Source: a virus
IMG/VR virus record: IMGVR_UViG_3300015371_000003
Location: 32,001-96,000 of that record
DNA length: 64,000 nt
Reading direction: 5' to 3' (one strand)
The notes under the pieces are model-generated. The model saw only the letters and a program-made list of their open reading frames with translations. It ran no database searches and was not told the DNA's origin. Both the position numbers and the translations under genes were made by a program. Positions 7,660 to 20,707 of the stretch are shown here, one piece after another. Numbering within the stretch: the first letter of the stretch is position 1; every line of letters starts with the position of its first letter.

Positions 7660-8192
7660 TGTTCGCAGCCGTCCTAAAGTTTGACCCGGCACAGCCCCGC
7701 GATGCCAAAGGGCGGTGGGTTGATGAGGAGGGCACGACACACGTCGGTGCGTTTGTCGAGTTGTATCATGGGACCAGTAAACTGCGGGCCAACAAGATTC
7801 TCAAGAAGGGGTTGAAAATTCGAGCGGTGGCGAAGCAGACGATGGGTGGGGATCCGGAGTCGAGTCGTGATTACATCTGGCTTGCCAAACGCATGGAGTC
7901 AGCCAGACGATACTCGGAGATGCACATCAATCCAACGGTACTAAAGGTGCTTTTGCCGGTGACGGAGTACGAGGAGTTGCGACGGCTTCAGACGGGGCCA
8001 GATTCTGTCTGGACGAAGCAATCTATTCCGGCTAAGCATATCAGTTTGTTCAATCTGCAAGCAATTGCACAAAAAGGAGCGGATATGGCGTTGAAAATCC
8101 TGAAAAAAGCGGAGGCTCCGGCCCCCACTGTGAAAGCCGAGAAGCCTCCGGATTACGTGCGAATCCTGAAAGGCAAAAAAGGAGCCTCTTGA
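7659..8192 (+). CDS. Tagged ADP-ribosyltransferase-fold protein (KptA/Tpt1- or PARP-like)
   Basis: Start at the TGATG overlap (7659); N-terminal VLKFDPAQPRDAKGRW tag, then LYHGTS…KILKKGL…YIWLA…ARRYS…VLKV, an ART-fold pattern. Confidence 0.6.
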   Translation: MFAAVLKFDPAQPRDAKGRWVDEEGTTHVGAFVELYHGTSKLRANKILKKGLKIRAVAKQTMGGDPESSRDYIWLAKRMESARRYSEMHINPTVLKVLLPVTEYEELRRLQTGPDSVWTKQSIPAKHISLFNLQAIAQKGADMALKILKKAEAPAPTVKAEKPPDYVRILKGKKGAS

Positions 8193-8218
8193 CAAACGCC
8201 CCACGCTCATGCTACTGT
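8189..8218 (+). promoter_or_regulatory. sigma70-type promoter TTGACA-18-TACTGT
   Basis: Consensus -35 (overlapping the upstream TGA stop) and a TGn-extended -10. Confidence 0.55.
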
Positions 8219-8264
8219 GGTGAACAGGCGACAGGAGTGTCGAGCACAACCGGCGCAAGGTAAG

Positions 8265-8293
8265 TTGACAAACTTCCGGATAGGTGCTACACT
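8265..8293 (+). promoter_or_regulatory. sigma70-type early promoter TTGACA-17-TACACT
   Basis: Perfect -35, TGn-extended -10, upstream of the PPDK-like gene. Confidence 0.75.
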
Positions 8294-8332
8294 CGTTGTT
8301 GGTTGCAGTTCAACTCAATGGAGTGAGAGCAC

Positions 8333-10312
8333 ATGGAGTTTGTTTCCTTCGGATTCACGAACGATGAGGCGGCTGGTTCCCCGGAACTATTGGGGGGCAA
8401 GGGCGCGGGCCTCTTGTGGCTGTCACGGCAAGGGGTGCCGGTGCCACCCGGATTCGTGATTCCTACGTCCGTCTGGGCGGAGTACGACAAAAAGCCGAAG
8501 TCCACGATGAAGGCGATTGCCAAGGCATTGCCGGTCTATCTGAAGCAACTCGACGCCTACTTCGGGTACCGTCCGCTTCTTTCCGTCCGCTCGGGTGCCC
8601 GTGTCTCGTGCCCCGGCATGATGGATACGATCCTCAACGTGGGGATCGACGGCGATACCACGGCGGAATGGCTCAAGCGGTTGGGTCCGACGTGCTTCGG
8701 GGATAGCTTCAAGCGGCTGGTCCAGATGTACGGGTCCGTCGTCAAGGGGCTTCGCAAGGAAATCTTCGACGGGGATCTGAAGACGGCCCTCGACGTGTAT
8801 CAGGCCAAAACGGAGCAGGCGTTTCCGGACGCTGAAGCCCAACTCCTTGGAGCCATCGAAGCGGTGTTCAAGTCGTGGGATAACGACCGGGCGGAGGAGT
8901 ACCGCAAGATGCACGGGTACGACCGGGCGTGGGGAACGGCGGTCACGGTGCAAGCGATGGTCTTCGGGAATCTGAACGACCAGAGCGGAACCGGCGTGCT
9001 GTTCACGCGCAACCCGAATACCGGCGACAACGAAGTCACGGGCGAATATCTCCGCAACGCGCAGGGGGAAGATATCGTGGCCGGGATCCGGACCCCGGAG
9101 CAGTTGCACGAGTTGCCGTTTGATTTCGGCGTGCCCTTGCATTCGGATCTTCTGGATCTGGTCAAGAAACTCGAAACGCTCAAGCGGGAAATGCTCGACA
9201 TCGAATTCACGATTCAGAACGGCAAGCTGTATCTCTTGCAGGTTCGCAGTGGCAAGCGCACGGCTATTGCCGCCCTGAAGATTGCGGTGGATCTGACGAA
9301 GCAGGGGTTGATCGATGCTCAAACAGCGGTGAGCCGGGTATCGCCCCGTGAATTCGATTTGGCGCAGGAAACGATACTGGATCCGGCGTTTACGACGGTC
9401 CCGGCATTTCAGGGGATCGGAGCCAGCAACGGGATCGTCAGCGGCGTGCCGGTGTTCACGAAGGAAGACGCCATCGAAAGCAAGGTGCCCTGCATCCTCG
9501 TGCGAGAAGAAACGACGCCGGAGGATATCAAGGGAATGAATGCGGCGGCGGGCGTGCTGACGATGAAGGGGGGCTTCACGTCGCATGCGGCGGTGGTGGC
9601 CCGTCAGATGAATCGGGCGTGCGTCGTCGGGCTGGAGCAGTCGGTGGAAGCGTTTACGAATGTCGAAGTCATCAGCCTTGACGGAGCCACGGGCCGGGTG
9701 TGGACCGAAAAGGTGCCGGTCATCAGCGGGCAGACCAACGGCGTGGTCAAGGATTTCACGGCAATGGTCTACTCGACACTGAACGGGGTCATCCCGATTG
9801 TGTTCGACGTGCCCACGGTGCCGGTCAACGAAGCGTTGCTCTATCTGGGGGATCAGATTCTGCATCCGGAGCAGGCGATTCAGACGGTGTTGCTCTCGTT
9901 GTCAAAGGTGCAGCGGCTGTATCTGGATCTGGTCCCAAGCGAGGAGGAATCACGGTTCCTCAAGCTGGTGGCGGCTCACAAGGTGACGGAGCGGTTTCTG
10001 GAAGCCTTGTCTCAGGTGCTGCCGAAGCATCACCCGCTGTTTTCTCGGTTGGTGGTGGTGGTCAAGCCGGGAGTGACCGTGGCGTTCTCGCACATGGTGG
10101 CGGGCGCGGATCTGCGGTCCCTCGTGCTGTCGGATACGGAAGTGATTCTGGACGGCGTGGATACGCTGGACCCGGCGATTCAGCGGGTGCTGGCGTGGAA
10201 GCTGGCGCAGGGGCTGTCGGCGGTGTCTATCGGCGCGTATGTGCCGGAGGCCAAGTCCATGTTGAGCGTGTCTCAAGCGTTGCAATTGATTGCCAACGGG
10301 AAGGGGGCATGA
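8333..10312 (+). CDS. Pyruvate phosphate dikinase-like protein (ATP-grasp plus phospho-His swivel domain; lacks the PEP/pyruvate barrel)
   Basis: LGGKG, SVRSGARVSCPGMMDTILN, QAMVFGN, LQVRSGKRTA and GGFTSHAAVVAR motifs; 659 aa with an unrelated ~190-aa C-terminus. Confidence 0.85.
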   Translation: MEFVSFGFTNDEAAGSPELLGGKGAGLLWLSRQGVPVPPGFVIPTSVWAEYDKKPKSTMKAIAKALPVYLKQLDAYFGYRPLLSVRSGARVSCPGMMDTILNVGIDGDTTAEWLKRLGPTCFGDSFKRLVQMYGSVVKGLRKEIFDGDLKTALDVYQAKTEQAFPDAEAQLLGAIEAVFKSWDNDRAEEYRKMHGYDRAWGTAVTVQAMVFGNLNDQSGTGVLFTRNPNTGDNEVTGEYLRNAQGEDIVAGIRTPEQLHELPFDFGVPLHSDLLDLVKKLETLKREMLDIEFTIQNGKLYLLQVRSGKRTAIAALKIAVDLTKQGLIDAQTAVSRVSPREFDLAQETILDPAFTTVPAFQGIGASNGIVSGVPVFTKEDAIESKVPCILVREETTPEDIKGMNAAAGVLTMKGGFTSHAAVVARQMNRACVVGLEQSVEAFTNVEVISLDGATGRVWTEKVPVISGQTNGVVKDFTAMVYSTLNGVIPIVFDVPTVPVNEALLYLGDQILHPEQAIQTVLLSLSKVQRLYLDLVPSEEESRFLKLVAAHKVTERFLEALSQVLPKHHPLFSRLVVVVKPGVTVAFSHMVAGADLRSLVLSDTEVILDGVDTLDPAIQRVLAWKLAQGLSAVSIGAYVPEAKSMLSVSQALQLIANGKGA

Positions 10313-10572
10313 TGGCTCTAAGCATTGGGGTGTCAGTCGGGAGTAAGATAGATATTGGCGGGCATGTTCTTCAGGTGAAATCACTCGCCCCACCGAATAT
10401 CGTGGTCATCACGATAGATCGTGGGGAGGAGATTGTCATCAGTGAGGGCAAGTCGGTGGAAATTCTGCCGGGGGTCAAGGTGCAATCAGGCTCCGGCGGC
10501 AACCGGCTGGCCTTCCATGCAGCGAAGTCGATTCGGATTTCACGGATGGGGGAAGCCTTTCAAAAGGGTTGA
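10309..10572 (+). CDS. CsrA/RsmA-like RNA-binding protein
   Basis: ATGA-coupled start; ALSIGVSVGSKIDIG…GNRLAFHAAKSIRISR matches the CsrA N- and C-terminal strands with an internal insertion. Confidence 0.5.
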   Translation: MMALSIGVSVGSKIDIGGHVLQVKSLAPPNIVVITIDRGEEIVISEGKSVEILPGVKVQSGSGGNRLAFHAAKSIRISRMGEAFQKG

Positions 10573-10576
10573 ACAG

Positions 10577-10903
10577 ATGCAGATCAGTCCTAAAGTCATG
10601 CGCGTGCTCCAAGCGGAGAAGATTCCTGCTGAGGAACTGTACCGCATGCTGGATGACGTGGCGTTCACGTCGATTCGTGGATGCAACCGGCGGTACTTCC
10701 AGTGGTTGTTTCTCGTGAAGGATAATGTCCTTCAGGATATGCAGCGGCTGGATCTGGTGCAAGTCGGGAAAGGCCAGAACCGCATGCTGGAGGAGCACGA
10801 AGCATGCGACGGCGAAGGCTGTCGGGAGTGCGGGTGGGTAGGCAGTATTTCACGGGCCGTAAACGACGTGACGGCCACGATGATCCAGTCCGCAGGGTTT
10901 TGA
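10577..10903 (+). CDS. Hypothetical protein with a Zn-finger-like motif (HEACDGEGCRECGWVG)
   Basis: DnaJ-type Cys/Gly motif near the C-terminus. Confidence 0.55.
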   Translation: MQISPKVMRVLQAEKIPAEELYRMLDDVAFTSIRGCNRRYFQWLFLVKDNVLQDMQRLDLVQVGKGQNRMLEEHEACDGEGCRECGWVGSISRAVNDVTATMIQSAGF

Positions 10904-10929
10904 CAAACGACCAGTAGTTGTGCGATACT
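10900..10929 (+). promoter_or_regulatory. sigma70-type promoter TTGACA-18-GATACT
   Basis: -35 overlaps the upstream stop; TG-extended -10. Confidence 0.6.
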
Positions 10930-10955
10930 AGATACCTCAAAGGAGTGAGGCTCAG

Positions 10956-11489
10956 ATGGCTTTAGGGCAGTTACGGCTACCAGTGAACAAGCGGCAGTAC
11001 TTCGTGGTGACGGGAGGCCCGTTCCACGAGTGTCCGCCCAACATGCAGGGCGTCAAGATGGCGAAGGAAATCAAGCAGGCGTGTGCCGTGGACATTCCCA
11101 CGGCTGATTTCCAGACGCCGGATCGGTTGGTGCTCTATCGTGGGCTGCACAAAGCCCTCGATTTGGTGCTGGCCGGGGAACCCCTGTATGTGGGGTGCAT
11201 GGGCGGCAAGGGGCGGACGGGGCTGTTTCTGGCCGTGCTGGTCAAAGCCTTCGGGGTCAAGAAACCGGTGGAATTCGTGCGGGCGAACTACTATGCCCAT
11301 GCGGTGGAGACGGATGAGCAAATGGCGTTCGTCCGGAAGTTCACCATTACGCCCCCGATGCGGCGGAAGATCAAGCGGCTTCGGCGGTGGTCGTGGCTCC
11401 GGTTCTGGAAGCGGAACCTGACCCGTCTCCCGGCTCCGGAAGGGGAGAAGCAGGCACCGGCCATGCGGAAGGTGGCCGGAGGCCGGTGA
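10956..11489 (+). CDS. Protein-tyrosine/dual-specificity phosphatase family (CX5R)
   Basis: VGCMGGKGRTG P-loop, DFQTP acid loop, AVETDEQ Q-loop. Confidence 0.85.
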   Translation: MALGQLRLPVNKRQYFVVTGGPFHECPPNMQGVKMAKEIKQACAVDIPTADFQTPDRLVLYRGLHKALDLVLAGEPLYVGCMGGKGRTGLFLAVLVKAFGVKKPVEFVRANYYAHAVETDEQMAFVRKFTITPPMRRKIKRLRRWSWLRFWKRNLTRLPAPEGEKQAPAMRKVAGGR

Positions 11490-11490
11490 T

Positions 11491-11520
11491 TTGACAAACG
11501 CCCACGGTTGGGTGTATACT
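11491..11520 (+). promoter_or_regulatory. sigma70-type promoter TTGACA-18-TATACT
   Basis: Near-consensus hexamers in an intergenic gap. Confidence 0.75.
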
Positions 11521-11559
11521 GGTTGAGTCAGTGGGGAGTCTCAAGGGAGTGAGCAGATC

Positions 11560-12675
11560 ATGAAGTTTCGTCCGACCAACACATTGGCGTATTTCAATGC
11601 CGCGCCCCAGACGCATCTGCATGATCTGTCGGATCTGCCGATTGCGGTGCTGGCGGAGGCCACGAAGAAGTACCGGGAGACGTGCGGCACTGTCTCGCCC
11701 AATGACGGCGCGGTGACGTTCTACACGCTGAACCATTGTGCGTCGATTGTGCGAAAGCTGTTCACGCCCCATGAAACGCTGCCGGAGTGGGCGCGGGTCA
11801 TCATGCAGACCTATACGACCGTTTGCATGGATCAGGGTGAGCGGATGCTGCACTACATCCTGAGTATCACCACACGGGAAATGCGTCATGTGTCCTCCTC
11901 GAAAGAGGCGCTGTGGAACGGCATGACGAAAGAGGCCGGAGCAGCGGTCGCACAGTTCATCAAGGGGAACTGCGCCAACGGGGAAGATTCGGCGGTGTCG
12001 AAGTACATGAACAATCCGCCGAATGCGACGGTGGGGCAGTACATCGGCGGCATGGCGTACGGGTTCTGGAATGGGTGGGGGAAGTACACCCCGGAGACAA
12101 TGGAGAATTGGAGCGGCGGCTACGGTGGCCCGACGTGGGCACTTGTGGCGGAAGCGGCTCGGGCCATGCTGACGGGCACCACGTCAATGGAAATGCTGGT
12201 GGACACGGGCTATACGCTGGCCCACAACGGTGGTCCCATTTTCAACAAGGGGATGATGTACACCCACTACGACAGTCATTTCCTGACGATTCTGGATTTA
12301 CAGCGGGCGGGTCAGATGCTGGATCTGCTGACCGGGACCAATTTGCATGGGATCAAGAAGACGCCTGAAGCGGTGGCGGCGGTGGCAGCGATTCAGCAAC
12401 CCGAGGCACAGCAGGCGATTGAAACGTTTCTGCCGGGAGAGGTGATTTTCAAGGGGTACATCGATTGGAAGCTGGTGGATGATCTTCGCCCGGATAAGTC
12501 GAAGAACCCCGGCAAGTATCACGCGCAGATTCACGCGCAGGCGCAGCCTACGGCGACGGTGAAGCCGAAGCCGAAGACGATCAAGTTTCACGGGAAGAAG
12601 GCCAAGGCAGTCGGGGAATTTCTGGTCTATCCCAAGCAGACGGTCAAGATTATCGAACGGACGGGGGGCAAGTGA
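11560..12675 (+). CDS. Hypothetical phage protein (GYGGxxW…D…AHNGGPIFNKG motif)
   Basis: 371 aa with its own promoter and strong SD; conserved-looking motifs, function not recognised. Confidence 0.7.
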   Translation: MKFRPTNTLAYFNAAPQTHLHDLSDLPIAVLAEATKKYRETCGTVSPNDGAVTFYTLNHCASIVRKLFTPHETLPEWARVIMQTYTTVCMDQGERMLHYILSITTREMRHVSSSKEALWNGMTKEAGAAVAQFIKGNCANGEDSAVSKYMNNPPNATVGQYIGGMAYGFWNGWGKYTPETMENWSGGYGGPTWALVAEAARAMLTGTTSMEMLVDTGYTLAHNGGPIFNKGMMYTHYDSHFLTILDLQRAGQMLDLLTGTNLHGIKKTPEAVAAVAAIQQPEAQQAIETFLPGEVIFKGYIDWKLVDDLRPDKSKNPGKYHAQIHAQAQPTATVKPKPKTIKFHGKKAKAVGEFLVYPKQTVKIIERTGGK

Positions 12676-13406
12676 TGGCGTGGGAAGACTGGAAGTCCAA
12701 GAAGCAGTCGGCGGACACGGCGTTCGCAGGCACGGCGTACTCGGTGCGGTGTTACGAGTCACACCCCGTGCTCAAGATCGGCAAGGGCAGGCTCTATGGG
12801 GGTAGTGCTCGCAACCCGGTGAAGGAGATGGACGTGTATGTGGTCCTTCAGAACGGGGATCAGGGCGGGCGGCAGTCGGATCCGTGGGACAAGCAGGCAG
12901 TCACGGAAATCTACTACGGCATCAACGACATGCACGCGCCGTCCAACGTGGCCCGGTTCAAGAAGCTGGTGACGTGGATTTGCACTCAATTGCAGGCGGG
13001 CAAGAAGGTCCACGTCGGCTGTATCGGTGGGCATGGACGAACCGGCACGGTGCTCTCCGCCATCATCGCGGAGGCGTTGAAGGAGAAGGATGCGATCCAG
13101 TGGGTGCGGAAGCACTACTGCAAGAAGGCGGTGGAGTCCAAGGATCAAGTCGCGTTCCTGATGAAGCATTACGGGGTGACGCAGGCCAAGGCGACGAAGG
13201 ATTACACGGGGTTGCTCCGGCGAGACAGCATTGAACCGGTCAGGACGGCGGGTCAAATGCCGTTGCTCCAACCGTCGTGGGTGAACACCCCGGTGGGTCA
13301 GGTGAAGTCAGGGACCACGAAGCGGGCGGTGCCGGAGAAGGCCACGAAGTCGTATGGCCCCATGGCGTCCGTCCGGAGTCTGTGGAAGCCCAAGCGGGGG
13401 ATTTGA
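12675..13406 (+). CDS. Protein-tyrosine/dual-specificity phosphatase family (CX5R)
   Basis: HVGCIGGHGRTG, DMHAP and AVESKDQ motifs; TGATG coupling. Confidence 0.85.
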   Translation: MAWEDWKSKKQSADTAFAGTAYSVRCYESHPVLKIGKGRLYGGSARNPVKEMDVYVVLQNGDQGGRQSDPWDKQAVTEIYYGINDMHAPSNVARFKKLVTWICTQLQAGKKVHVGCIGGHGRTGTVLSAIIAEALKEKDAIQWVRKHYCKKAVESKDQVAFLMKHYGVTQAKATKDYTGLLRRDSIEPVRTAGQMPLLQPSWVNTPVGQVKSGTTKRAVPEKATKSYGPMASVRSLWKPKRGI

Positions 13407-13431
13407 CAAATCCCTAGCCCGGTGCTATACT
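13403..13431 (+). promoter_or_regulatory. sigma70-type promoter TTGACA-17-TATACT
   Basis: Perfect -35 overlapping a stop codon; TGn-extended -10. Confidence 0.8.
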
Positions 13432-13474
13432 GGATGCCGGTCGAGTAAACTTTAGCTCAAGGGAGTGGGCAGCA

Positions 13475-14434
13475 ATGGCAGTGAAACTTAGTTCCGAAGC
13501 ACAGTTGGTGTTCTTCAACCAAATCTTCGGGTCAACCCATCCGGTGGTCGGACAGGCCAAAGCCCTGTTGCAGTCCGGGGTCACGTTCGAAGTCGGTCTG
13601 TACGAGATACAGGCGCATGTCGGCGGCAAGCTGTTGACCAGTCTCAAGCTGACCTATGGGACCACGCCACTGATGAAGGGGCAGGCCAATTCGGTGGTGC
13701 TCGGTCACAACAAAGCCCTCATCGAAGGGTGGGTGGAGGGGGTGTTCAAGAAGCAGGGATCCCCGGCGGTGTATGCGGCGGCGGTGGCTCCGAAGGCTCT
13801 GGTATCGGTGGTGCTCACGGGCGTCTCGGCTCTCGTGGGATCGGTGCTCCCGCTGATCAAGGTGGTTAATGAAGCAATGGGAACCACGGGCACCCTCAAG
13901 GATGCCAAAGCTGCCGTGGACAAGGCCAAGGATGGCATTGCGTCGGTCATCGGTTCGTTTTCGCCCGCTGATGCGGCAACGTTGGCGGCGGCACTGCAAG
14001 CCAAAGGTGGACAGGTGACGGTTGGGGGTGTGGCACCGAAGCCGGTGTTTGCTCCGCAACAGCCGGTGGCCTACAACGCGGCGAAGGTGGATGCCGTGAT
14101 CGATTTGAAAGCGGCGGCGGCACTCGGCCAGAAGGTGCATGGGACCAGTACGGGCAGCGTCTACTACTGCATTGCGATGACGGAGCACGTCAAGGTGGCG
14201 GCACGGCTGACCGCCGGAGGTTCTGTCTCCATTCGCGTGGAGTGGACGGACAATCCGAAGGATGATCTGAAGAAGCTGACGGAGGCCGGGGTCATCATGA
14301 AGCAGGGGTATGGCTCCATCCATTTCGATGCCGAGAACGTGCCCATGCCGCGAGTCGTCGGCGCGTTTCTTCTGGGCACCGGCATCAACTGGAAGCAGAT
14401 CGTCACCAACGGTGCGGAACTGGTGGTGGCGTGA
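13475..14434 (+). CDS. Protein with an internal ribosomal L7/L12 C-terminal-like domain
   Basis: VSVVLTG…LIKVVNEAMG..GTLKDAKAAVD…SPADAATLAAALQAKGGQVTV aligns by eye to the L7/L12 CTD. Confidence 0.55.
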   Translation: MAVKLSSEAQLVFFNQIFGSTHPVVGQAKALLQSGVTFEVGLYEIQAHVGGKLLTSLKLTYGTTPLMKGQANSVVLGHNKALIEGWVEGVFKKQGSPAVYAAAVAPKALVSVVLTGVSALVGSVLPLIKVVNEAMGTTGTLKDAKAAVDKAKDGIASVIGSFSPADAATLAAALQAKGGQVTVGGVAPKPVFAPQQPVAYNAAKVDAVIDLKAAAALGQKVHGTSTGSVYYCIAMTEHVKVAARLTAGGSVSIRVEWTDNPKDDLKKLTEAGVIMKQGYGSIHFDAENVPMPRVVGAFLLGTGINWKQIVTNGAELVVA

Positions 14435-14691
14435 TGATCTGCCGGGATGCGATCCGATTGGAGTCGGCGGCGGCACAGCACGAACTGAAGCTGCTCGAAT
14501 CGATGCAGGTCGGGGGCACCCGGCGAGGGGTGCTTCTTCCGGCCCTCTCCGTGGGGGTGGAGTGGACCCTGATGACGGCCAAGCCGGGGTACTGGGAATT
14601 CGACGGCACGTTTTTCGGTCAGCCGTTCTACCGGCTGGTCATTCGCACGGATGCGGGGTTGCTGACGCTCGAAGTGCAGGAGGCCAAGTAA
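14434..14691 (+). CDS. Hypothetical protein
   Basis: About 85 aa, translationally coupled on both sides. Confidence 0.55.
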   Translation: MICRDAIRLESAAAQHELKLLESMQVGGTRRGVLLPALSVGVEWTLMTAKPGYWEFDGTFFGQPFYRLVIRTDAGLLTLEVQEAK

Positions 14692-15185
14692 TGGATCTGG
14701 CGTATTTCGCGGCGGATACCCTTGGGGTGACGCTCTACCAAATTGGGGACACGTTGACGGCCAACGAGGTGCGCCAGACGGCACTCGGGCCATGGACGCT
14801 GGATCTGCCGATGGATGTGGAGTCCGATATCCTCTCCGGCACTGAGCTAGGCTTCTGGGTCACGCTTGGCAAGCAATTGCACCTCTACGTGGTCGTGCGG
14901 GAGAAGGAGAACTGGCTGTTCGTCCTGAACCACACGAAGCTGGCGGACTGCGAGCAACAGACCCTGTTCGAAGCCCAGACCATCATCGGACGGCTGAAGG
15001 AATTCAAACCGGCTATTGTGGGCGTGTTTGAGTGGGGTGACAACGAGTGGACCCAAGTCAAGTATGATGGGGGCGGGAGCGAGCATGCTGACGATCTGGA
15101 CGAAGGGTCTTCCGAACAAGGTACTGCAAGCGTTCTCCCCGGTGCTGCGTTCGGTACCGCATCTGCCCGTCCACGTCGTCAGTGA
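14691..15185 (+). CDS. Hypothetical protein
   Basis: TAATG-coupled start with SD ggagg (MDLAYFAADTLG…); 3' end overlaps the polymerase start. Confidence 0.55.
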   Translation: MDLAYFAADTLGVTLYQIGDTLTANEVRQTALGPWTLDLPMDVESDILSGTELGFWVTLGKQLHLYVVVREKENWLFVLNHTKLADCEQQTLFEAQTIIGRLKEFKPAIVGVFEWGDNEWTQVKYDGGGSEHADDLDEGSSEQGTASVLPGAAFGTASARPRRQ

Positions 15186-18100
15186 TTTTACCGTCCCCGC
15201 TGGCACCAAGACCATCTTGGCGCTTGGCGGGGATTCTCTCAAGCAACTCCAAACCGAAAAGGTGATCGCCAAGAACCGGACGATCACCGCCTACCGGACC
15301 CTCCCGCAAATGCGGGGCGGCGTGCCGGTGCTCATCAGCTACGATTCGAGCATCGGAGAGATTGATTACGGCTACCACGTCGATCTGTTGACGGACGTGA
15401 CGCTGGCGATTCGGTTTTGTCTGACCGGCAACTGGAAACCCGCCTACGGCAAGTATCGCTACGTCCCTGACTTCGCGGAGCTATGCACGTCGATTGAGCA
15501 GCAGCACAAGGCGACCGGCAAACCGGTGGACGTGGCGAAGGATCTGGAAACGTTGGGGCTGGATCCGTATGCCCTCCCCTCCCTGAATCCTCTCTACCCC
15601 GGTGCCTACATCGTGACCATGCAGGCCACGCACCAAGCGGGCACCGCAGATGTAGTGCGCTTCAGTAATCGGGAACACGAGACGGAACGTTTACAAGATC
15701 AGACACTTCGTGAGCAGATTGAGTTTCTGTTGCGCTGTCCCTACGTGCGGCTGAAGGGGGCGAATTTCAAATACGATTTGCATTGGCTGTGGAAGCGGGG
15801 CGGCTTTACCTGTTCCACGTTCTGTTTTGATACCACTATCGTTGGCTCGCTGCTGGATGAGAACCGGTCCAACTCCCTCGACACGCACACCAAGATTTAC
15901 GTGCCGTCGTTGGGTGGGTATGCAGACGTGTTCAACGCGACGGTGGACAAGAGTCGCATGGATCAAGTTCCACCGGATCAACTTCTCCCGTATGCGGGCG
16001 GCGACGTGGATGCGGATCTACAGGTGGCGGCAGCACAGAAGTCGGAACTACTCCGAGACAAGCAACTCACCTCGTTCTACGTGAACATCCTCCACCCGGC
16101 AGCACGGGCCTTCGAATGGGTGGAGCAAGGGGGTGTCCTTGTCGATCTGCCTGCCTTTCAGGAACTGAAGGCAGATTTGGAGCAGGAGCACCAACGGCTG
16201 GTCAAAGAGGCGTGCAAGATCATGGGCGGGCGCATCGTGGCGAAGCACGGTTACATGGTGGACCCCGGTGGTTTCAATCTCACCAAGGCGTCCATGCTCT
16301 GTGACTTCATGTTCAGTCCGATGGGGCTGAATCTGAAACCGCAGATGTATACGGCGAAGCCCGATAAGGATGGGATCAAACGCCCCTCGACGGCAATGGA
16401 ACACCTTGAGATGTTTGCGGAGGTGCCGGAGGCCAAAGCCTTCGTGGAGATTATCCGTGAAGACTCTGGGGTGATGAAGACGTATAACACCTATGTGGTA
16501 GGGTTCTTGGAACATCTCAGGTCGGACGGACGCTTTCACCCCACGTATTATTTGTTCGTAGGCAACCGGGATGACGGGGAAGGCGGGGCCAAGACGGGGC
16601 GGCTCTCCTGTAAAGCTCCGGCCTTCCAGTGTTGCGTGGGCGAGACAGAAGTGGTCACGAATCAGGGGTCACGATGTATTGATTGGTTGGTGGAGCAACG
16701 GGGAGCAGGACTCCATGTGCTGAGCCATACCGGGCAGTGGCAACCGATTGTAGACGTGCATCGAAATGGCGTCCAGCCAGTGTTTCGTGTGAGCACGGTT
16801 AGTGGTCGTGCAATTGACTGCACGGCAAACCATCCGTTGTTGACGCCTGTTGGGTGGGTAAGAACAGATCAGTTGGTGGTGGGGGATCGCTGTTATGTCA
16901 CTCGGACACCGCACGCAACATTACACGAGTCCGACGTATTACTCGTGGAGCGCGATGAAGAATCGTTGCTTGTCGAAGACATCGAAAGATTGGTCCAAGT
17001 ATGGGGGGCGTGGGATCAAAGTGTGCCCTCAGTGGATGACCTTCGAAGGCTTCTTGAACAACATGGGCGAGAAGCCGGGGAAGGGATGGTCTATCGAGCG
17101 GAAAGACGTAAACGGGAATTACGAACCGGGCAATTGTTACTGGGCGACATTGAAGGAGCAGGGCAGCAATCGTCGGAATACCAAATGGATTACATTCGAG
17201 AACAAGACGCAGACCGAGGCGCAGTGGGCGCGGGAGTACGGGATTTCCAGAGGCCGGTTGCATTACCGGCTCTCGATTGGCCTTCCGATGGAGCAAGCAC
17301 TGATGAAGACTACCCGCCCGACCGGAGTGTCTTCCAAGAAGACTGCATCGTTTCTATCGAACCAGTAGGTGAGCGAGAGACGTTTGATTTGACCATTGAA
17401 GGCAGTCATTCGTTCATAGCGAACGGGATTGCGGTCCACAACACGGTGCCCAAGCACACCAAGTACGCACAGCGAATCCGGCGTTGTTATCCGGCTCCAC
17501 CCGGATACGTGGTTGTGGAGCGGGATTACGGACAAGGGGAGCTACGGGTCATTGCGTGCGTAGCCCACGAGACGGGCATGCTGGCGGTGTTCAAAGCAGG
17601 CCGGGACATTCACGCAGACACCGCAGCCCCCTTCTCCGGCTTCACGTATGAGAAGCTGATGGCGTTGGAGGCGACGGATCCCCACACCTTCGAAGAAACG
17701 CGGCAGCTTGGCAAGGCAGGCAATTTTGGGTTGTGCTTCGGCATGAAGGAAGATGGGTTTGTCATCTACGCACGGGTGAACTACGGGGTGAACCTCTCGT
17801 GGGATGAGGCGCACGATTTTCGAAACGGGTTCTTCAAGAAGTACCCGCAACTGCTGGTCTATCACGAGTGGGCCAAGTCGTATGCGCGGCAACACAAATT
17901 CATTCGAACCCCCCTTGGACGGCTGAGACACCTCCCCCTGATCAAGAGTCCCAATCGAGAAGTGGCGGCAAAGGCGGAGCGGCAGGCCATCAACAGTCCG
18001 ATTCAAGGGTGCCTCACGGATATGGGCCTGTGGACGATAGCGTTGGAGCAACAGTCCGGGTTGGCAGAGATTGCGCCATGCTTCGGAGCCTGCCATGATT

Positions 18101-18276
18101 CCCTCATGAACTACGTGCCGGAGGATCGGGTGGATGAGATTGTGACGCGCCAACTGGACCAAATGGAATCGTTACCCTTTGAGAAAGTAGGTTGGCAACC
18201 TCAATTGACGTTTGTTGCGGATGCAAGAGTAGGAAAAAATTGGGGGGATATGACGAAATTCAAGAGGAAGAAATGA
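15085..18276 (+). CDS. polA: Family A DNA polymerase with 3'-5' exonuclease and an intein
   Basis: Exo motifs DLET, NFKYD, YAGGD; TGRLS; motif A DYGQGELR; motif B RQLGKAGNFGLCFG; motif C CHDS; probable start ATG 15085 after gggag. Confidence 0.92.
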   Translation: MLTIWTKGLPNKVLQAFSPVLRSVPHLPVHVVSDFTVPAGTKTILALGGDSLKQLQTEKVIAKNRTITAYRTLPQMRGGVPVLISYDSSIGEIDYGYHVDLLTDVTLAIRFCLTGNWKPAYGKYRYVPDFAELCTSIEQQHKATGKPVDVAKDLETLGLDPYALPSLNPLYPGAYIVTMQATHQAGTADVVRFSNREHETERLQDQTLREQIEFLLRCPYVRLKGANFKYDLHWLWKRGGFTCSTFCFDTTIVGSLLDENRSNSLDTHTKIYVPSLGGYADVFNATVDKSRMDQVPPDQLLPYAGGDVDADLQVAAAQKSELLRDKQLTSFYVNILHPAARAFEWVEQGGVLVDLPAFQELKADLEQEHQRLVKEACKIMGGRIVAKHGYMVDPGGFNLTKASMLCDFMFSPMGLNLKPQMYTAKPDKDGIKRPSTAMEHLEMFAEVPEAKAFVEIIREDSGVMKTYNTYVVGFLEHLRSDGRFHPTYYLFVGNRDDGEGGAKTGRLSCKAPAFQCCVGETEVVTNQGSRCIDWLVEQRGAGLHVLSHTGQWQPIVDVHRNGVQPVFRVSTVSGRAIDCTANHPLLTPVGWVRTDQLVVGDRCYVTRTPHATLHESDVLLVERDEESLLVEDIERLVQVWGAWDQSVPSVDDLRRLLEQHGREAGEGMVYRAERRKRELRTGQLLLGDIEGAGQQSSEYQMDYIREQDADRGAVGAGVRDFQRPVALPALDWPSDGASTDEDYPPDRSVFQEDCIVSIEPVGERETFDLTIEGSHSFIANGIAVHNTVPKHTKYAQRIRRCYPAPPGYVVVERDYGQGELRVIACVAHETGMLAVFKAGRDIHADTAAPFSGFTYEKLMALEATDPHTFEETRQLGKAGNFGLCFGMKEDGFVIYARVNYGVNLSWDEAHDFRNGFFKKYPQLLVYHEWAKSYARQHKFIRTPLGRLRHLPLIKSPNREVAAKAERQAINSPIQGCLTDMGLWTIALEQQSGLAEIAPCFGACHDSLMNYVPEDRVDEIVTRQLDQMESLPFEKVGWQPQLTFVADARVGKNWGDMTKFKRKK
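16630..17442 (+). mobile_element. Intein (271 aa) in the DNA polymerase
   Basis: AFQ|CCVGET… block A; TANHPLLT block B; FDLTIEGSHSFIANGIAVHN|T blocks F/G. Removal restores TGRLSCKAPAFQTVP. Confidence 0.92.
16895..17368 (+). CDS. HNH endonuclease nested out of frame inside the intein
   Basis: TYYSWSAMKNRC…YGGRGIKVCPQW..FEGFLNNMGEKP…SIERKDVNGNYEPGNCYWAT..EQ..NRR, a typical phage HNH family pattern, in the +1 frame relative to the polymerase. Confidence 0.8.
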   Translation: MSLGHRTQHYTSPTYYSWSAMKNRCLSKTSKDWSKYGGRGIKVCPQWMTFEGFLNNMGEKPGKGWSIERKDVNGNYEPGNCYWATLKEQGSNRRNTKWITFENKTQTEAQWAREYGISRGRLHYRLSIGLPMEQALMKTTRPTGVSSKKTASFLSNQ

Positions 18277-18662
18277 AGGGCATCCACAGCATGACCTTGG
18301 CAGAGCGAATCATAGCTAAGACTAAAGTGAACGAGAACGGGTGTCGGCTGTGGCAGGAGTCCTTACTGAAGGACGGCTATGCGCTGATTCGGTACAAAGG
18401 GAAAAAAATTACCGTGCATCGGGCGGCGTGGATGGCTTTCAAAGGTCCAATTCCAGACGGCATGTCGGTGTTGCATTCGTGTGATATTCGACATTGCACG
18501 GCTGAGGAGCATTTGTTTTTAGGAACCTATGCTGATAACTCGAAAGATGCTGTGACGAAAGGGAGACAAAAGAATTTATTTCCGAGTGGTGATCTGCATC
18601 CGAATAGGATTAAAAAACTCAAGAAATTGCAGCGGTTGACAAGACTGAGAGAGTTGGGTTAG
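18273..18662 (+). CDS. HNH homing endonuclease
   Basis: CRLWQ…GY…VHRAAWMAFKGPIPDGMSVLHSCD…HLFLGTYADNSKD; ATGA overlap with the polymerase stop; AT-richer DNA. Confidence 0.85.
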   Translation: MKGIHSMTLAERIIAKTKVNENGCRLWQESLLKDGYALIRYKGKKITVHRAAWMAFKGPIPDGMSVLHSCDIRHCTAEEHLFLGTYADNSKDAVTKGRQKNLFPSGDLHPNRIKKLKKLQRLTRLRELG

Positions 18663-18665
18663 ACT
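18636..18665 (+). promoter_or_regulatory. sigma70-type promoter TTGACA-18-TAGACT
   Basis: Same pattern as the other early promoters, followed by the shared TCAATGGAGTGA RBS motif. Confidence 0.6.
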
Positions 18666-18685
18666 AGGTTCCTGTCAATGGAGTG

Positions 18686-20707
18686 ATGATGAAGATACCT
18701 GACGGATTCCGGCCAGTTACGCTTGGTGGAATGCTCTCTCATTTTGAGAAGGCGTCTCCGCAATTGGGGCAAATGCTGGCGGACCATCTCAAGCGGCCTA
18801 TCGAAGATGCCTCTGCCACGATTACGCGGCTTGAGGCAATGGGGTTGGTGCAGTTTGCCATTTCCTCCTCCAATGAACCGTCCATCTTCGTCGCGGCTCC
18901 GGAGCGATTTGTGTCAGCGGAGGATCAAGCCTTCGCGGATGCTCTCGTGACGTTCTGGGATGTGACCGGCAAGTTTGACGACAGGGAGGGGCGGATATCC
19001 TCCATTGAAGCGGCGGGGGGTGAGACACGGATTCTGACACCTGACGGCCCGGTGTCCATTGCCCCTCGTGTGGCTCTGAAGCTGTGGAAGATGGGGCTGC
19101 TTACGGAGGACGCAACCGGACAACTGCGAGCCAAGTCGAAGGCACAGTTGTATGCCGCCACCGAAGAAGTGGGTATTTGCGATTTCTGTTCTGATCCGAA
19201 TCCCACGCACACGGTGCTCCTCCCGAGTTTCGAACTAGTACAGGGCCATCGGAGTGAAGGGGGCTGGCGAGCCTGCGAGACGTGCTACCAGATGGTTCAG
19301 CACGATCAACGCACGGATCTGTTGCGGCGGGCGATTGATTCTCAAGGCGGAGGTCGGTGGGTAGCGGCGTCGATCCAAGGGCTGCACAGGCGGTTCTGGA
19401 AGCAGATGGAACTGAAGGTGGAAGCCGCAGGGATTGGATCGGCCCTACTGACTTTCATTAAGGGGGACATCCAACCGGCCCAACCGTTCATTGATCCCAA
19501 AATGCAGCAACAGGAGGCCCGCAAGGAGGCCATCCGGCGCATGACGGGGTTGTCACAGGACGAAATGACGGCGCTTGAACGAGGCGACGTACTTCACAAG
19601 GAGATTGCTCAGAAGCTGGATACATGGCGGCGGCGGTGGTTGCCCGAGAAGGATGACGGCAATGAGGGCCAGCGAGCACAGGCCATTGCGGAGATGCTGA
19701 ATGCCGCAGGGCGTCCACTCCCCCCGAACCTGCAACCCCATTGGCAGATTGCCTTGGACCGCAAGGTGGAGGCGATGGGGCGGCTGGATAAGCTGGTCAA
19801 GGCGGATGGCGGAGTGTTGCAGTTGGGGCACGGGTTGCTCCATGACATGGAAGAAGACTTGTCGGTTCTGAAGCTGGCCGATGTCTATTCCTTCAACGCC
19901 GACACCATGCACGCGATTCAGGAGGGGGCCAAGACGATTTCCCATGAATCCACCTTGAAGTCGGTGGAGATTCCGACCGTGCGGGCGGGGTGGTTTTGGT
20001 TTGCGGATCCGTTCCCGGTAGCGTCGTCTCCGAATTCATCGGATAACACCCATGCCATGCTCTGGTCGTGGGGTAGGGATTTCAAGGTGCCGACGTTGCG
20101 ATTCTCGTGCTACGTGGTGACGGAGAAGGTGCCCTACAACAGCGACCTTCGCAATACCATCTACCCGTCTACTATCTGGTTGTGGCCGATGGATTTGAAT
20201 TTCCATGAGATGCTGGCGTTCAATCGGCAACTGTACAAGGATAGCTACGGGCCGGGAAGCCCGGATTCTCCCGGTAAGGAGGCCGCAGTCGGGGAGGAAC
20301 CGACGCTGTTGGTGGTGGCGGAGATGAGCCTGTTCTTCCTGATGGCCTGTCTCTGGTTCCGACAGACGGTGCCGGGGAATCCTAAGAAGAAGATCGAACC
20401 TAAGCTCACCCAGACACCCGGTCACATTGAACGGCATGCGCGGAAGCGGTATGAGAAGGCGTTCAAGACCACGCCCACCGTGCATGTGATTGCGCTCCGG
20501 AAGTCGGCGGTGGAGCGGGTGGAGTCGGGAGAGGGGACTGGTAGCAAGCTGAAGGTCCGGTTTGTGGTGCGAGGCCACGCGAAGCTGCAACCGTGTGGTC
20601 CGGGGAGAGCCGATAGAAAGTTGATTTGGATTGATCCGTTCGTCAAGGGGCCGGAGGATGCGCCGTTCAAGGAGTCGGGACCACGGGTATTCGCGGTGAT
20701 CAGATGA
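18686..20707 (+). CDS. Large hypothetical phage protein
   Basis: About 673 aa; CDFC…ACETC Zn motif; C-terminal VRGH…QPCG…RKLIWIDPFVKGP motif. Confidence 0.7.
   Translation: MMKIPDGFRPVTLGGMLSHFEKASPQLGQMLADHLKRPIEDASATITRLEAMGLVQFAISSSNEPSIFVAAPERFVSAEDQAFADALVTFWDVTGKFDDREGRISSIEAAGGETRILTPDGPVSIAPRVALKLWKMGLLTEDATGQLRAKSKAQLYAATEEVGICDFCSDPNPTHTVLLPSFELVQGHRSEGGWRACETCYQMVQHDQRTDLLRRAIDSQGGGRWVAASIQGLHRRFWKQMELKVEAAGIGSALLTFIKGDIQPAQPFIDPKMQQQEARKEAIRRMTGLSQDEMTALERGDVLHKEIAQKLDTWRRRWLPEKDDGNEGQRAQAIAEMLNAAGRPLPPNLQPHWQIALDRKVEAMGRLDKLVKADGGVLQLGHGLLHDMEEDLSVLKLADVYSFNADTMHAIQEGAKTISHESTLKSVEIPTVRAGWFWFADPFPVASSPNSSDNTHAMLWSWGRDFKVPTLRFSCYVVTEKVPYNSDLRNTIYPSTIWLWPMDLNFHEMLAFNRQLYKDSYGPGSPDSPGKEAAVGEEPTLLVVAEMSLFFLMACLWFRQTVPGNPKKKIEPKLTQTPGHIERHARKRYEKAFKTTPTVHVIALRKSAVERVESGEGTGSKLKVRFVVRGHAKLQPCGPGRADRKLIWIDPFVKGPEDAPFKESGPRVFAVIR

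Follow-up and report, generated by a model that had tools for sequence, protein, structure and literature searches.

A CsrA-like protein and covarying A(N)GGAG hairpins at promoter-proximal ribosome sites suggest a private translational control circuit in a group of phages

The high-affinity target of the CsrA/RsmE proteins is an ANGGAX hexaloop placed directly on a stem, with AGGAX pentaloops and loops carrying extra nucleotides as weaker variants (PMC4005645), and the ligands obtained by SELEX are mostly hexaloops on stems of no more than 4 pairs (PMC7652899). Canonical csrA genes have been reported in 30 phages (PMC7366521), gp28 of Escherichia coli phage PTXU04 is a CsrA homologue whose knockdown results in small plaques (PMC11879866), and RsmQ is a plasmid-borne homologue (PMC9928087). 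Here we analyze a 64,000-nucleotide stretch (hereinafter, the window) of the IMG/VR virus record IMGVR_UViG_3300015371_000003, which contains a gene for a remotely CsrA-like protein together with small hairpins that present Shine-Dalgarno (SD) sequences in their loops just downstream of promoters. The phage probably runs a private translational control circuit.

The hairpins resemble the ribosome-site hairpins bound by CsrA and RsmE, such as the hcnA ribosome-binding site (RBS) and the RsmZ stem-loops, in the A(N)GGAX loop of 5 to 6 nucleotides (nt), the stem of no more than 4 bp and the overlap with the SD sequence (PMC4005645, PMC7652899). The protein, like CsrA/RsmE, is small and beta rich, appears from the alignments to retain residues equivalent to L4 and R44, and is encoded by a gene that is probably self-controlled. 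Different from CsrA/RsmE, it is predicted to carry, after strand 3 and before strand 4, a beta insertion some 37 residues long and to lack a C-terminal helix, and it shows nonbasic residues at the R6/R7 positions, while the closing pair of the hairpins is mostly A-U, there is usually one site per leader, and the targets would be the transcription units of the phage itself. As in the case of the canonical phage and plasmid csrA genes, a mobile element possesses its own CsrA-family regulator; those genes, however, are detectable by PSI-BLAST and are assumed to act on host mRNAs, whereas the present family is far more divergent and is accompanied by a matching motif on its own leaders. The locus exemplifies a largely viral and previously unannotated branch of the family with a candidate regulon on the phage's own mRNAs. 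The literature searched contained no description of such a family with an insertion, nor of any cis regulon carried by a phage, and the papers on DLP3/DLP5 and RcZahn, which are relatives of this phage, make no mention of CsrA, promoters or ribosome-site motifs.

Two further phage systems offer a term of comparison. RegA of T4 is an early protein that represses the translation of many phage early mRNAs, including its own, at AU-rich, unstructured sites, and the coat proteins of MS2 and Qbeta repress translation by stabilizing the replicase operator hairpin, which comprises the ribosome site or start codon. The CsrA-like protein would share with RegA the character of an early phage protein proposed to shut many early ribosome sites, its own included, but its sites are GGA hairpin loops and the two families are unrelated; with MS2 and Qbeta it would share repression by a phage protein at a hairpin, although in those RNA phages a single operator per genome is recognized by an unrelated protein. 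If the proposed circuit is real, it would represent, besides RegA, a second general solution for genome-wide translational timing in a DNA phage, as well as a natural set of orthogonal protein/RNA-tag pairs.

The window corresponds to bases 32001 to 96000 of a 116,229-bp record with direct terminal repeats and is part of the nonstructural arm of an uncultured 116-kb soil phage; the sequencing runs listed as containing it are DNA runs from rhizosphere metagenomes, and no RNA run was among them. The GC content is 57.6%, and nearly all genes are carried by the plus strand. DNA searches with the window sequence and single-protein searches of the phage collection gave no match, and relatives were reached solely through profile searches and through the PPDK-like protein encoded upstream of the CsrA-like gene. 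The latter led to the Stenotrophomonas phages DLP5, DLP3 and Summit, Rhizobium phage RHph_TM16 (TM16), Rhodobacter phage RcZahn and a group of Vibrio phages. The gene order PPDK-like, small gene(s), phosphatase is common to these cultured relatives, and the order PPDK-like, CsrA-like, phosphatase occurs in DLP5, TM16, RcZahn and metagenomic lineages. With a profile built on the small open reading frame (ORF), 15 related IMG/VR loci were retrieved, 10 of them nonredundant, which together with the whole genome record (G000) gave 11 sources.

Covarying hairpins on promoter-proximal ribosome sites

We confirmed the six hairpins and the ORF at positions 10309 to 10572 on which the original prediction, made from the sequence alone, was built, with one G.U pair in the stem of the hairpin at 13455. 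Five of the hairpins hold an SD sequence (Table 1), and each of these lies 12 to 30 nt 3' of a TTGACAAAy-N17/18-(T/G)AnACT promoter (beginning at 8265, 10900, 11491, 13403 and 18636) and 0 to 6 nt before a long ORF's start codon, with the GGAG overlapping the SD sequence 6 to 11 nt upstream of the start codon at 5 of 5 sites. Four matches to the pattern TCANNGGAGTGA are present in the window, where 0.20 are expected, and none of 100 shuffles reaches four. Such promoters number about 20 in the whole genome, with just one not on the plus strand, and the first GGAG past a TTGACAAAy-N17-TAnACT promoter usually lies in an A(N)GGAG loop carried by a stem of roughly 4 bp. A Watson-Crick stem of at least 4 bp is found at 8 of the 18 promoter-proximal GGAG sites versus 9 of the 177 other RBS-like GGAGs (Fisher P = 1.5e-5), and at 6% of all other GGAGs of the genome. 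The stems differ among the leaders of this one genome (CTCA/TGAG, GCTC/GAGC, GCCC/GGGC and TGCCCCA/TGGGGCG). According to a crude gene table, the structural block (51 to 96 kb of the genome) is free of these promoters and of the CA-A(N)GGAG-UG hairpin, as had been anticipated for late genes; the proposed restriction to early genes proved too narrow, since almost all sigma-70-type promoters of the nonstructural arms have the motif behind them and in RcZahn it is spread over much of the genome.

The first GGAG after every promoter, whether paired or not, was taken in the 11 nonredundant phage loci, for a total of 62 sites. Stems of at least 4 bp are present at 41 of them, compared with a mean of 15.9 and a maximum of 24 in 1000 shuffles of the 3' arms among sites; when the 3' arm is slid by 1, 2 or 3 nt, 24, 9 and 7 sites retain such stems, respectively. 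Likewise, in a fixed-register alignment of the 31 hexaloop sites, 71.0% of the cells are paired (49.4 +/- 2.8% after shuffling, 0/500) and the covariation score is 0.559 (0.193 in shuffles, 0/500), with slid registers giving no more than 44% pairing and a covariation of no more than 0.203. The signal is carried by the inner four pairs, which are formed in 25 to 30 of the 31 sequences through multiple pair types: A-U (21) and C-G (8) at the closing pair; C-G (26) at the second; U-A (12), C-G (10), G-C (2), A-U (1) and U.G (2) at the third; and C-G (9), A-U (5), U-A (4), G-C (2) and G.U/U.G (5) at the fourth, so that the third and fourth pairs from the loop each occur in four Watson-Crick types. 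Pairs five and six find no support, being unpaired in 20 to 21 of the 31 sequences. The leaders orthologous to that of the 8314 hairpin show CTCA/TGAG, CCCA/TGGG, ACCA/TGGT and TTCA/TGAA, and those orthologous to the 11540 leader show CTCCA/TGGGG, TCAATCA/TGATTGA, TTGTCA/TGACGG and AACC/GGTT; the conservation of the stems in homologous leaders, whose absence would have refuted the original prediction, is accompanied by covariation. It follows from these compensatory substitutions, which maintain the stem, that the stem is selected as an RNA structure. Furthermore, G.U-type pairs exceed A.C-type mismatches at stem positions 3 to 5 (23 versus 10), which fits an RNA of the coding strand and not a DNA palindrome. 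The sixth hairpin, at 8229 to 8242, is not conserved in the relatives, and locus L017 has a different ACGGAG hairpin in its place.

As regards the recognition rules of CsrA/RsmE, the phage loops on stems of at least 3 bp comprise 30 hexaloops, 15 pentaloops, 4 heptaloops and 1 tetraloop, and in the hexaloop alignment the first loop position is A and GGAG is invariant. An A(N)GGAX loop directly on a stem, a short covarying stem and overlap with the SD sequence are all found, and the loops fit the ANGGAX hexaloop target (PMC4005645, PMC7652899), as had been proposed. The target consensus (A/U)C-ANGGAN-G(U/A), in which the closing pair is C-G and the next pair U-A or A-U, differs from the sites of this lineage, where the closing pair is mostly A-U. 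The original prediction had noted an A-U closing pair in place of the canonical C-G, as a possible source of specificity: A-U predominates here, but it is not the sole type, because a C-G pair also closes a hairpin of the same genome (GCTC-AGGGAG-GAGC) and is the rule in a sister lineage. C-G likewise closes the loops of the sister lineages L019, TM16 and RcZahn.

Every lineage has a fixed motif version of its own. Except for one CATCGGAGTG on the other strand of DLP5, the copies are all on the coding strand, and nearly all are located shortly before a start codon and after a promoter-like sequence. DLP5 has 15 copies of CAATGGAGTG (18 with variants) and keeps the exact 10- to 11-mer CAAUGGAGUGA at 13 to 15 sites, and at 17 of the 18 sites the stem has no extension past the two conserved pairs; in DLP5, the conserved entity is the sequence, not the hairpin. 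RcZahn has 13 copies of CCAAGGAGGG (plus one variant), with a mean of 1.57 extra pairs versus 0.71 after shuffling (P<0.0005). The version of TM16 is CCACGGAGGG (5 copies, with variable stem extension), which is also found in the metagenomic locus L019 (3 copies, plus one CCAAGGAGGG, all on the coding strand and with stems of 3 to 5 bp), while the metagenomic loci L049 to L055 show CAATGGAGTG or [TC]CAAGGAGTG, again with variable extension. The N of A-N-GGAG is lineage specific (U, C or A) and is often not complementary to the anti-SD sequence (U or C).

Some details of individual sites can be added. In DLP5, an A follows the TG at 15 of the 18 sites, 13 of them with the exact AATGGAGTGA; this A completes a stop codon and also blocks the extension of the stem. 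The version CAATGGAGTGA contains the three-codon frame ATG-GAG-TGA (window 8317 to 8325 and 18677 to 18685). The strongest hairpin, UGCCCCA-AGGAG-UGGGGCG (-11.5 kcal/mol), lies outside the window (genome 9776 to 9850) and is followed by a second SD sequence (GGGAGGA) and a GTG start; its looped GGAG may not be the ribosome site in use.

The CsrA-like protein and its family

The CsrA-like protein has 50 close homologues (60 to 89% identity), which suggest that translation starts at the second ATG (10312), and is a member of a mostly viral family, which comprises no fewer than 316 clusters (50% identity), nearly all 85 to 95 amino acids (aa) in length. A member follows the kinase gene in DLP5 (gp139), TM16 (gp132) and RcZahn (gp7), and no close relative was found in the bacterial genome contigs searched. 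NCBIfam and PHROGs gave no match for the protein. The Pfam CsrA family (PF02599) is the top match, at E<=1, of 68 of 107 family members, with RcZahn gp7 at 20.7 bits and two members, P0182 (29.9 bits) and P0148 (27.6 bits), above the 27-bit cutoff. When the PDB was searched with a first, narrower profile, no match was obtained; with the wider family profile, the four best matches are all CsrA/RsmE, at E values of 0.25 to 0.7, which are not significant. In hhalign, residues 4 to 25 correspond to residues 3 to 25 of E. coli CsrA (E 1.2e-3) and residues 64 to 85 to CsrA residues 28 to 51 (E 1.4e-3), collinearly and with a probability of 17 to 19%, in a comparison whose power is little above that of a single sequence because the CsrA set is nearly invariant (85 to 93% identical). 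The conserved RNA-binding residues of CsrA belong to strands beta1 and beta5 (L4 and R44, as well as L2, R6, R7, V40, V42 and I47). R78, kept in at least 90% of the members, aligns with R44 of CsrA, and I5 aligns with L4. The consensus of the family is MALSxGVxxGxxIxVG ... RLAFEAPRSIRIER.

Taken together, the Pfam, PDB-profile and hhalign comparisons suggest that the protein is a remote but consistent relative of CsrA, in keeping with the original prediction, and that it consists of CsrA strands 1 to 3, an inserted stretch of some 37 residues for which four strands are predicted, and strands 4 and 5. A rearrangement of the CsrA-family fold by an inserted element is known from RsmN of Pseudomonas aeruginosa, which still binds GGA hairpins; in RsmN, however, a helix is inserted between strands 2 and 3, whereas in the phage protein the predicted four-strand beta insertion lies between strands 3 and 4 (PMC3791407). 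The AlphaFold2 monomer model shows nine strands and no helix, with a predicted local distance difference test (pLDDT) score of 85.8; its matches to generic beta-sandwiches (viral fusion-protein domains, FHA and FeoA; Z <=7.5) were not read as relationships.

The subgroups of the family go along with the closing pair of the motif: proteins of the type MALSIGV... occur with CA...UG, and those of the type MAL(V/I)L(T/S)L...DFYVG occur with CC...GG. In particular, the Thr5-equivalent position is G where the closing pair is A-U (the window and the DLP5 clade) and T or S where it is C-G (L019 and RcZahn), with TM16 as a partial exception, a correlation that is confounded by phylogeny. In the Vibrio phage vB_VhaS-MS03 (MS03; L024, L044 to L048), which has a lower GC content, the PPDK-like gene is followed by a divergent homologue of 162 aa without the R44-equivalent arginine; the genome has none of the A(N)GGAG motifs, and its commonest GGA 10-mers are the palindromes GCTTAGGAGC (6 copies) and GATAAGGATC (5 copies), located upstream of start codons.

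In 17 of 19 related loci, one duplicate having been removed (18 of 20 listed), tblastn places an ORF of 108 aa directly after the CsrA-like gene. Its product, for which no Pfam, PHROG, NCBIfam or PDB match was found, has orthologues in DLP5 (gp140, annotated as "transcriptional repressor"), RcZahn (gp8) and TM16 (gp133). By analogy with FliW, which acts on Bacillus CsrA, it could be a partner or an antagonist of the CsrA-like protein.

Candidate readers of the looped ribosome sites

We give an even chance to the reading that we consider the best, in which the loops are bound by the phage CsrA-like protein, which in this way sets how strongly the first cistron is translated. The protein would bind in the way in which CsrA/RsmE binds ANGGAX hexaloops and, once bound, would compete with the 30S subunits at the first cistron of each transcription unit, its own operon included, resulting in negative feedback or in a delayed shut-off. 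Since the start of the CsrA-like gene is coupled to the hairpin-controlled PPDK-like gene, the protein would limit its own synthesis. The least certain step is the direction of the control, repression being assumed from CsrA and T4 RegA. The hypothesis is directly testable, because three relatives can be cultured: DLP5/DLP3 on Stenotrophomonas maltophilia, RcZahn on Rhodobacter capsulatus and RHph_TM16 on Rhizobium.

Several observations weigh against this reading. The window protein reaches only 12.4 to 12.7 bits (E 0.13 to 0.16) with Pfam CsrA, against a cutoff of 27 bits, and the equivalents of the CsrA residues R6/R7 are V/S, which are not basic. Most leaders have one site, whereas CsrA dimers usually bridge two; the UGA after GGAG could extend the pairing with 16S rRNA; and the motif-bearing phages are all relatives, which makes common descent a confounder of the link between gene and motif. 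In thermodynamic terms the hairpins are weak (-1.1 to -4.8 kcal/mol for the six of the window and mostly -1.1 to -5.4 kcal/mol genome-wide, apart from the single outlier outside the window), and the minimum-energy fold of the leader often does not contain them, so the case rests on covariation and not on energy. Moreover, neither Foldseek (best E 0.25) nor VIA-align (best Z 7.5) found a CsrA chain with the AlphaFold monomer; CsrA is an interdigitated homodimer, each chain of which has five beta strands and a C-terminal helix, and a monomer model therefore cannot match the swapped dimer. Of the structural check that the original prediction had called for, the profile and hhalign comparisons point to CsrA, but the CsrA fold was not recovered from the monomer. 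With regard to a sponge small RNA of the CsrB/RsmZ type, no Rfam family was found at the gathering score in the window, where the Rfam and tRNA scans were both empty, and no cluster of GGA hairpins was noticed. An extended pairing with 16S rRNA (GGAG^UGA, with a bulged C) was tried as an explanation of the conserved UG(A/G) and was discarded, because it fails on the covarying 5' arms and on the CC...GG lineages.

It is possible to hypothesize, although we regard it as somewhat unlikely, that the hairpin is a purely cis-acting module of the ribosome site, which keeps the SD sequence single stranded and shielded from variable 5' leaders or else tunes de novo initiation on the first cistron, with the CsrA-like protein acting elsewhere, for example on host mRNAs. 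The motif marks the cistrons that need de novo loading of the 30S subunit, the internal genes being mostly coupled, the stems are weak enough to open, and proposals for the CsrA homologues of plasmids and phages generally place their targets in the host (PMC9928087, PMC11879866). A closed hexaloop, however, must melt before the SD/anti-SD helix of 6 to 8 bp can form, and the benefit of a selected stem is not obvious. In addition, the fixed sequence of DLP5, exact at most sites while the stem extension is missing, and the lineage-specific N, which as U or C is unexplained by 16S pairing, favor a trans-acting factor over a purely structural role. Such a factor might be another phage product that reads the motif as a tag for preferential translation, namely the 108-aa Cys-rich protein or ribosomes modified by the kinase/phosphatase/L12-like module. 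The close linkage of the 108-aa gene to the CsrA-like gene and the synteny of the PPDK-like kinase, the two phosphatases and the protein resembling the L7/L12 C-terminal domain (CTD) would agree with this proposal, which we nevertheless judge decidedly unlikely, given that Pfam and PDB searches revealed no RNA-binding signature in the 108-aa protein, that L019 has the motif and the CsrA-like gene without the 108-aa neighbor, and that the motif closely fits the CsrA recognition rules. A bolder form of the reading based on the CsrA-like protein, which appears unlikely to us, is a self-contained phage Csr system, in which a single chain, its sandwich completed by the beta insertion and with one RNA site, would read a tag of about 10 nt at the first ribosome site of every unit; protein and tag would coevolve, the system would work without host CsrA, and it could, in combination with the kinase, the two phosphatases and the protein of L7/L12 type, constitute a module for taking over translation, with the tag marking phage mRNAs for preferential translation and not for repression.

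The loops match the canonical target, and host CsrA or RsmA could therefore bind them and tie early phage translation to the Csr state of the host, with the phage protein modulating or titrating it; in favor of this alternative, the group of Stenotrophomonas, the host of DLP5, possesses RsmA. The alphaproteobacterial genomes were reached via the tail protein of RcZahn that resembles those of gene transfer agents (GTA), and the E. coli, Bacillus subtilis and Thermotoga controls were positive for PF02599. PF02599 was found in 0 of 151 sampled genomes for the family of the Cypionkella record (Rhodobacteraceae, by record title; the host family of RcZahn) and in 1 of 151 for that of the Rhizobium record (by title; the host family of TM16). 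These counts make host CsrA an unlikely reader in at least two lineages, as RcZahn and TM16 keep 14 and 5 motif sites, respectively, although in the genomes sampled their host families show almost no PF02599; furthermore, the versions of the motif are lineage specific and do not follow a host consensus. Control by host CsrA, which the original prediction had left as an alternative, has accordingly lost ground, and we deem it very unlikely. Phages and plasmids with csrA are known in hosts without a chromosomal csrA (PMC7366521). Finally, we considered and rejected, as extremely improbable, the view that the inverted repeats are DNA operators of a dimeric DNA-binding protein just 3' of the promoters. 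Palindromic DNA does occur at +15 to +45 of many promoters, but the half-sites covary freely around an asymmetric GGAG spacer that is the only invariant part, all sites lie on the coding strand and keep a fixed distance to the start codons, and the excess of G.U over A.C reported above is at odds with an operator.

Early module and other features of the window

The coordinates of the promoters, hairpins and genes are given in Table 1. The PPDK-like gene is syntenic in DLP5, TM16, RcZahn and MS03.

Table 1. Promoters, hairpins and genes around the CsrA-like gene (window positions; SD, Shine-Dalgarno)
Feature	Position	Strand	Basis or remark
P1, upstream tandem promoter of PPDK-like operon	8189..8218	+	TTGACAAAC-N-TACTGT, consensus match
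Hairpin CGACA-GGAG-TGTCG, GGAG tetraloop in P1 leader, not A(N)GGAG loop	8229..8242	+	-4.6 kcal/mol
P2, promoter of PPDK-like/CsrA-like operon	8265..8293	+	TTGACAAAC-N17-TACACT
SD hairpin CTCA-ATGGAG-TGAG, ribosome site of PPDK-like gene	8314..8327	+	sequence
PPDK-like kinase gene, 659 aa, first cistron of operon	8333..10312	+	PPDK_N 6.7e-40, PEP-utilizers 7.1e-22 (Pfam); phrog_18609 "kinase" 1.3e-155
CsrA-like gene, 87 aa from 10309 or 86 aa from 10312	10309..10572	+	ATGA overlap with PPDK-like stop
Cys-rich ORF, 108 aa, GNRRY ... CxxxxCxxC	10577..10903	+	directly 3' of CsrA-like gene
Promoter of first phosphatase gene	10900..10929	+	TTGACAAAC-N-GATACT
SD hairpin CCTCA-AAGGAG-TGAGG	10935..10950	+	-4.8 kcal/mol
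Dual-specificity/tyrosine phosphatase-like gene, 177 aa	10956..11489	+	Pfam PTP-SAK 6.2e-9
Promoter of 371-aa gene	11491..11520	+	TTGACAAAC-N-TATACT
SD hairpin CTCA-AGGGAG-TGAG	11540..11553	+	sequence
371-aa gene, phrog_20946, unknown function	11560..12675	+	PHROG match
Promoter of L7/L12-CTD-like gene	13403..13431	+	TTGACAAAT-N17-TATACT
SD hairpin GCTCA-AGGGAG-TGGGC, one G.U pair	13455..13470	+	-4.0 kcal/mol
319-aa gene, weak L7/L12 C-terminal-domain match	13475..14434	+	Pfam Ribosomal_L12 3.5e-5, 24.5 bits, below 25.9 cutoff
Promoter of 672-aa gene	18636..18665	+	TTGACAAG-N-TAGACT
SD hairpin (TG)TCA-ATGGAG-TGA(TG), G.U extension TGTCA/TGATG to 18673..18688	18675..18686 (core)	+	3' arm enters start codons
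672-aa gene, phrog_15934, unknown function	18689..20707	+	PHROG match

The PPDK-like operon is preceded in every relative by tandem sigma-70-type promoters about 75 nt apart (window 8189 to 8293; L006 to L018), and the stretch between them is not conserved. In 22 of the 68 promoters of the phage group, an AGT starts 6 to 7 nt past the -10 hexamer, in a context of approximately GGTTnnAGT (for instance, at window 11527 to 11529), and may represent a start-site context or a further signal.

Positions 8333 to 14434 form a conserved early module, which encodes the PPDK-like kinase, two dual-specificity/tyrosine-phosphatase-like proteins, both filed under a PHROG named "thymidylate synthase," and the L7/L12-CTD-like protein, whose match is below threshold. 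Judging from these assignments, the composition of the module suggests a phosphorylation-based manipulation of the host, possibly with the translation apparatus as its target. Farther downstream, in the region from 15016 to 18662, the gene for a family-A DNA polymerase contains an intein (Pfam Intein_splicing 1.2e-10), and its end is overlapped by the following gene, for an HNH endonuclease (18192 to 18662).

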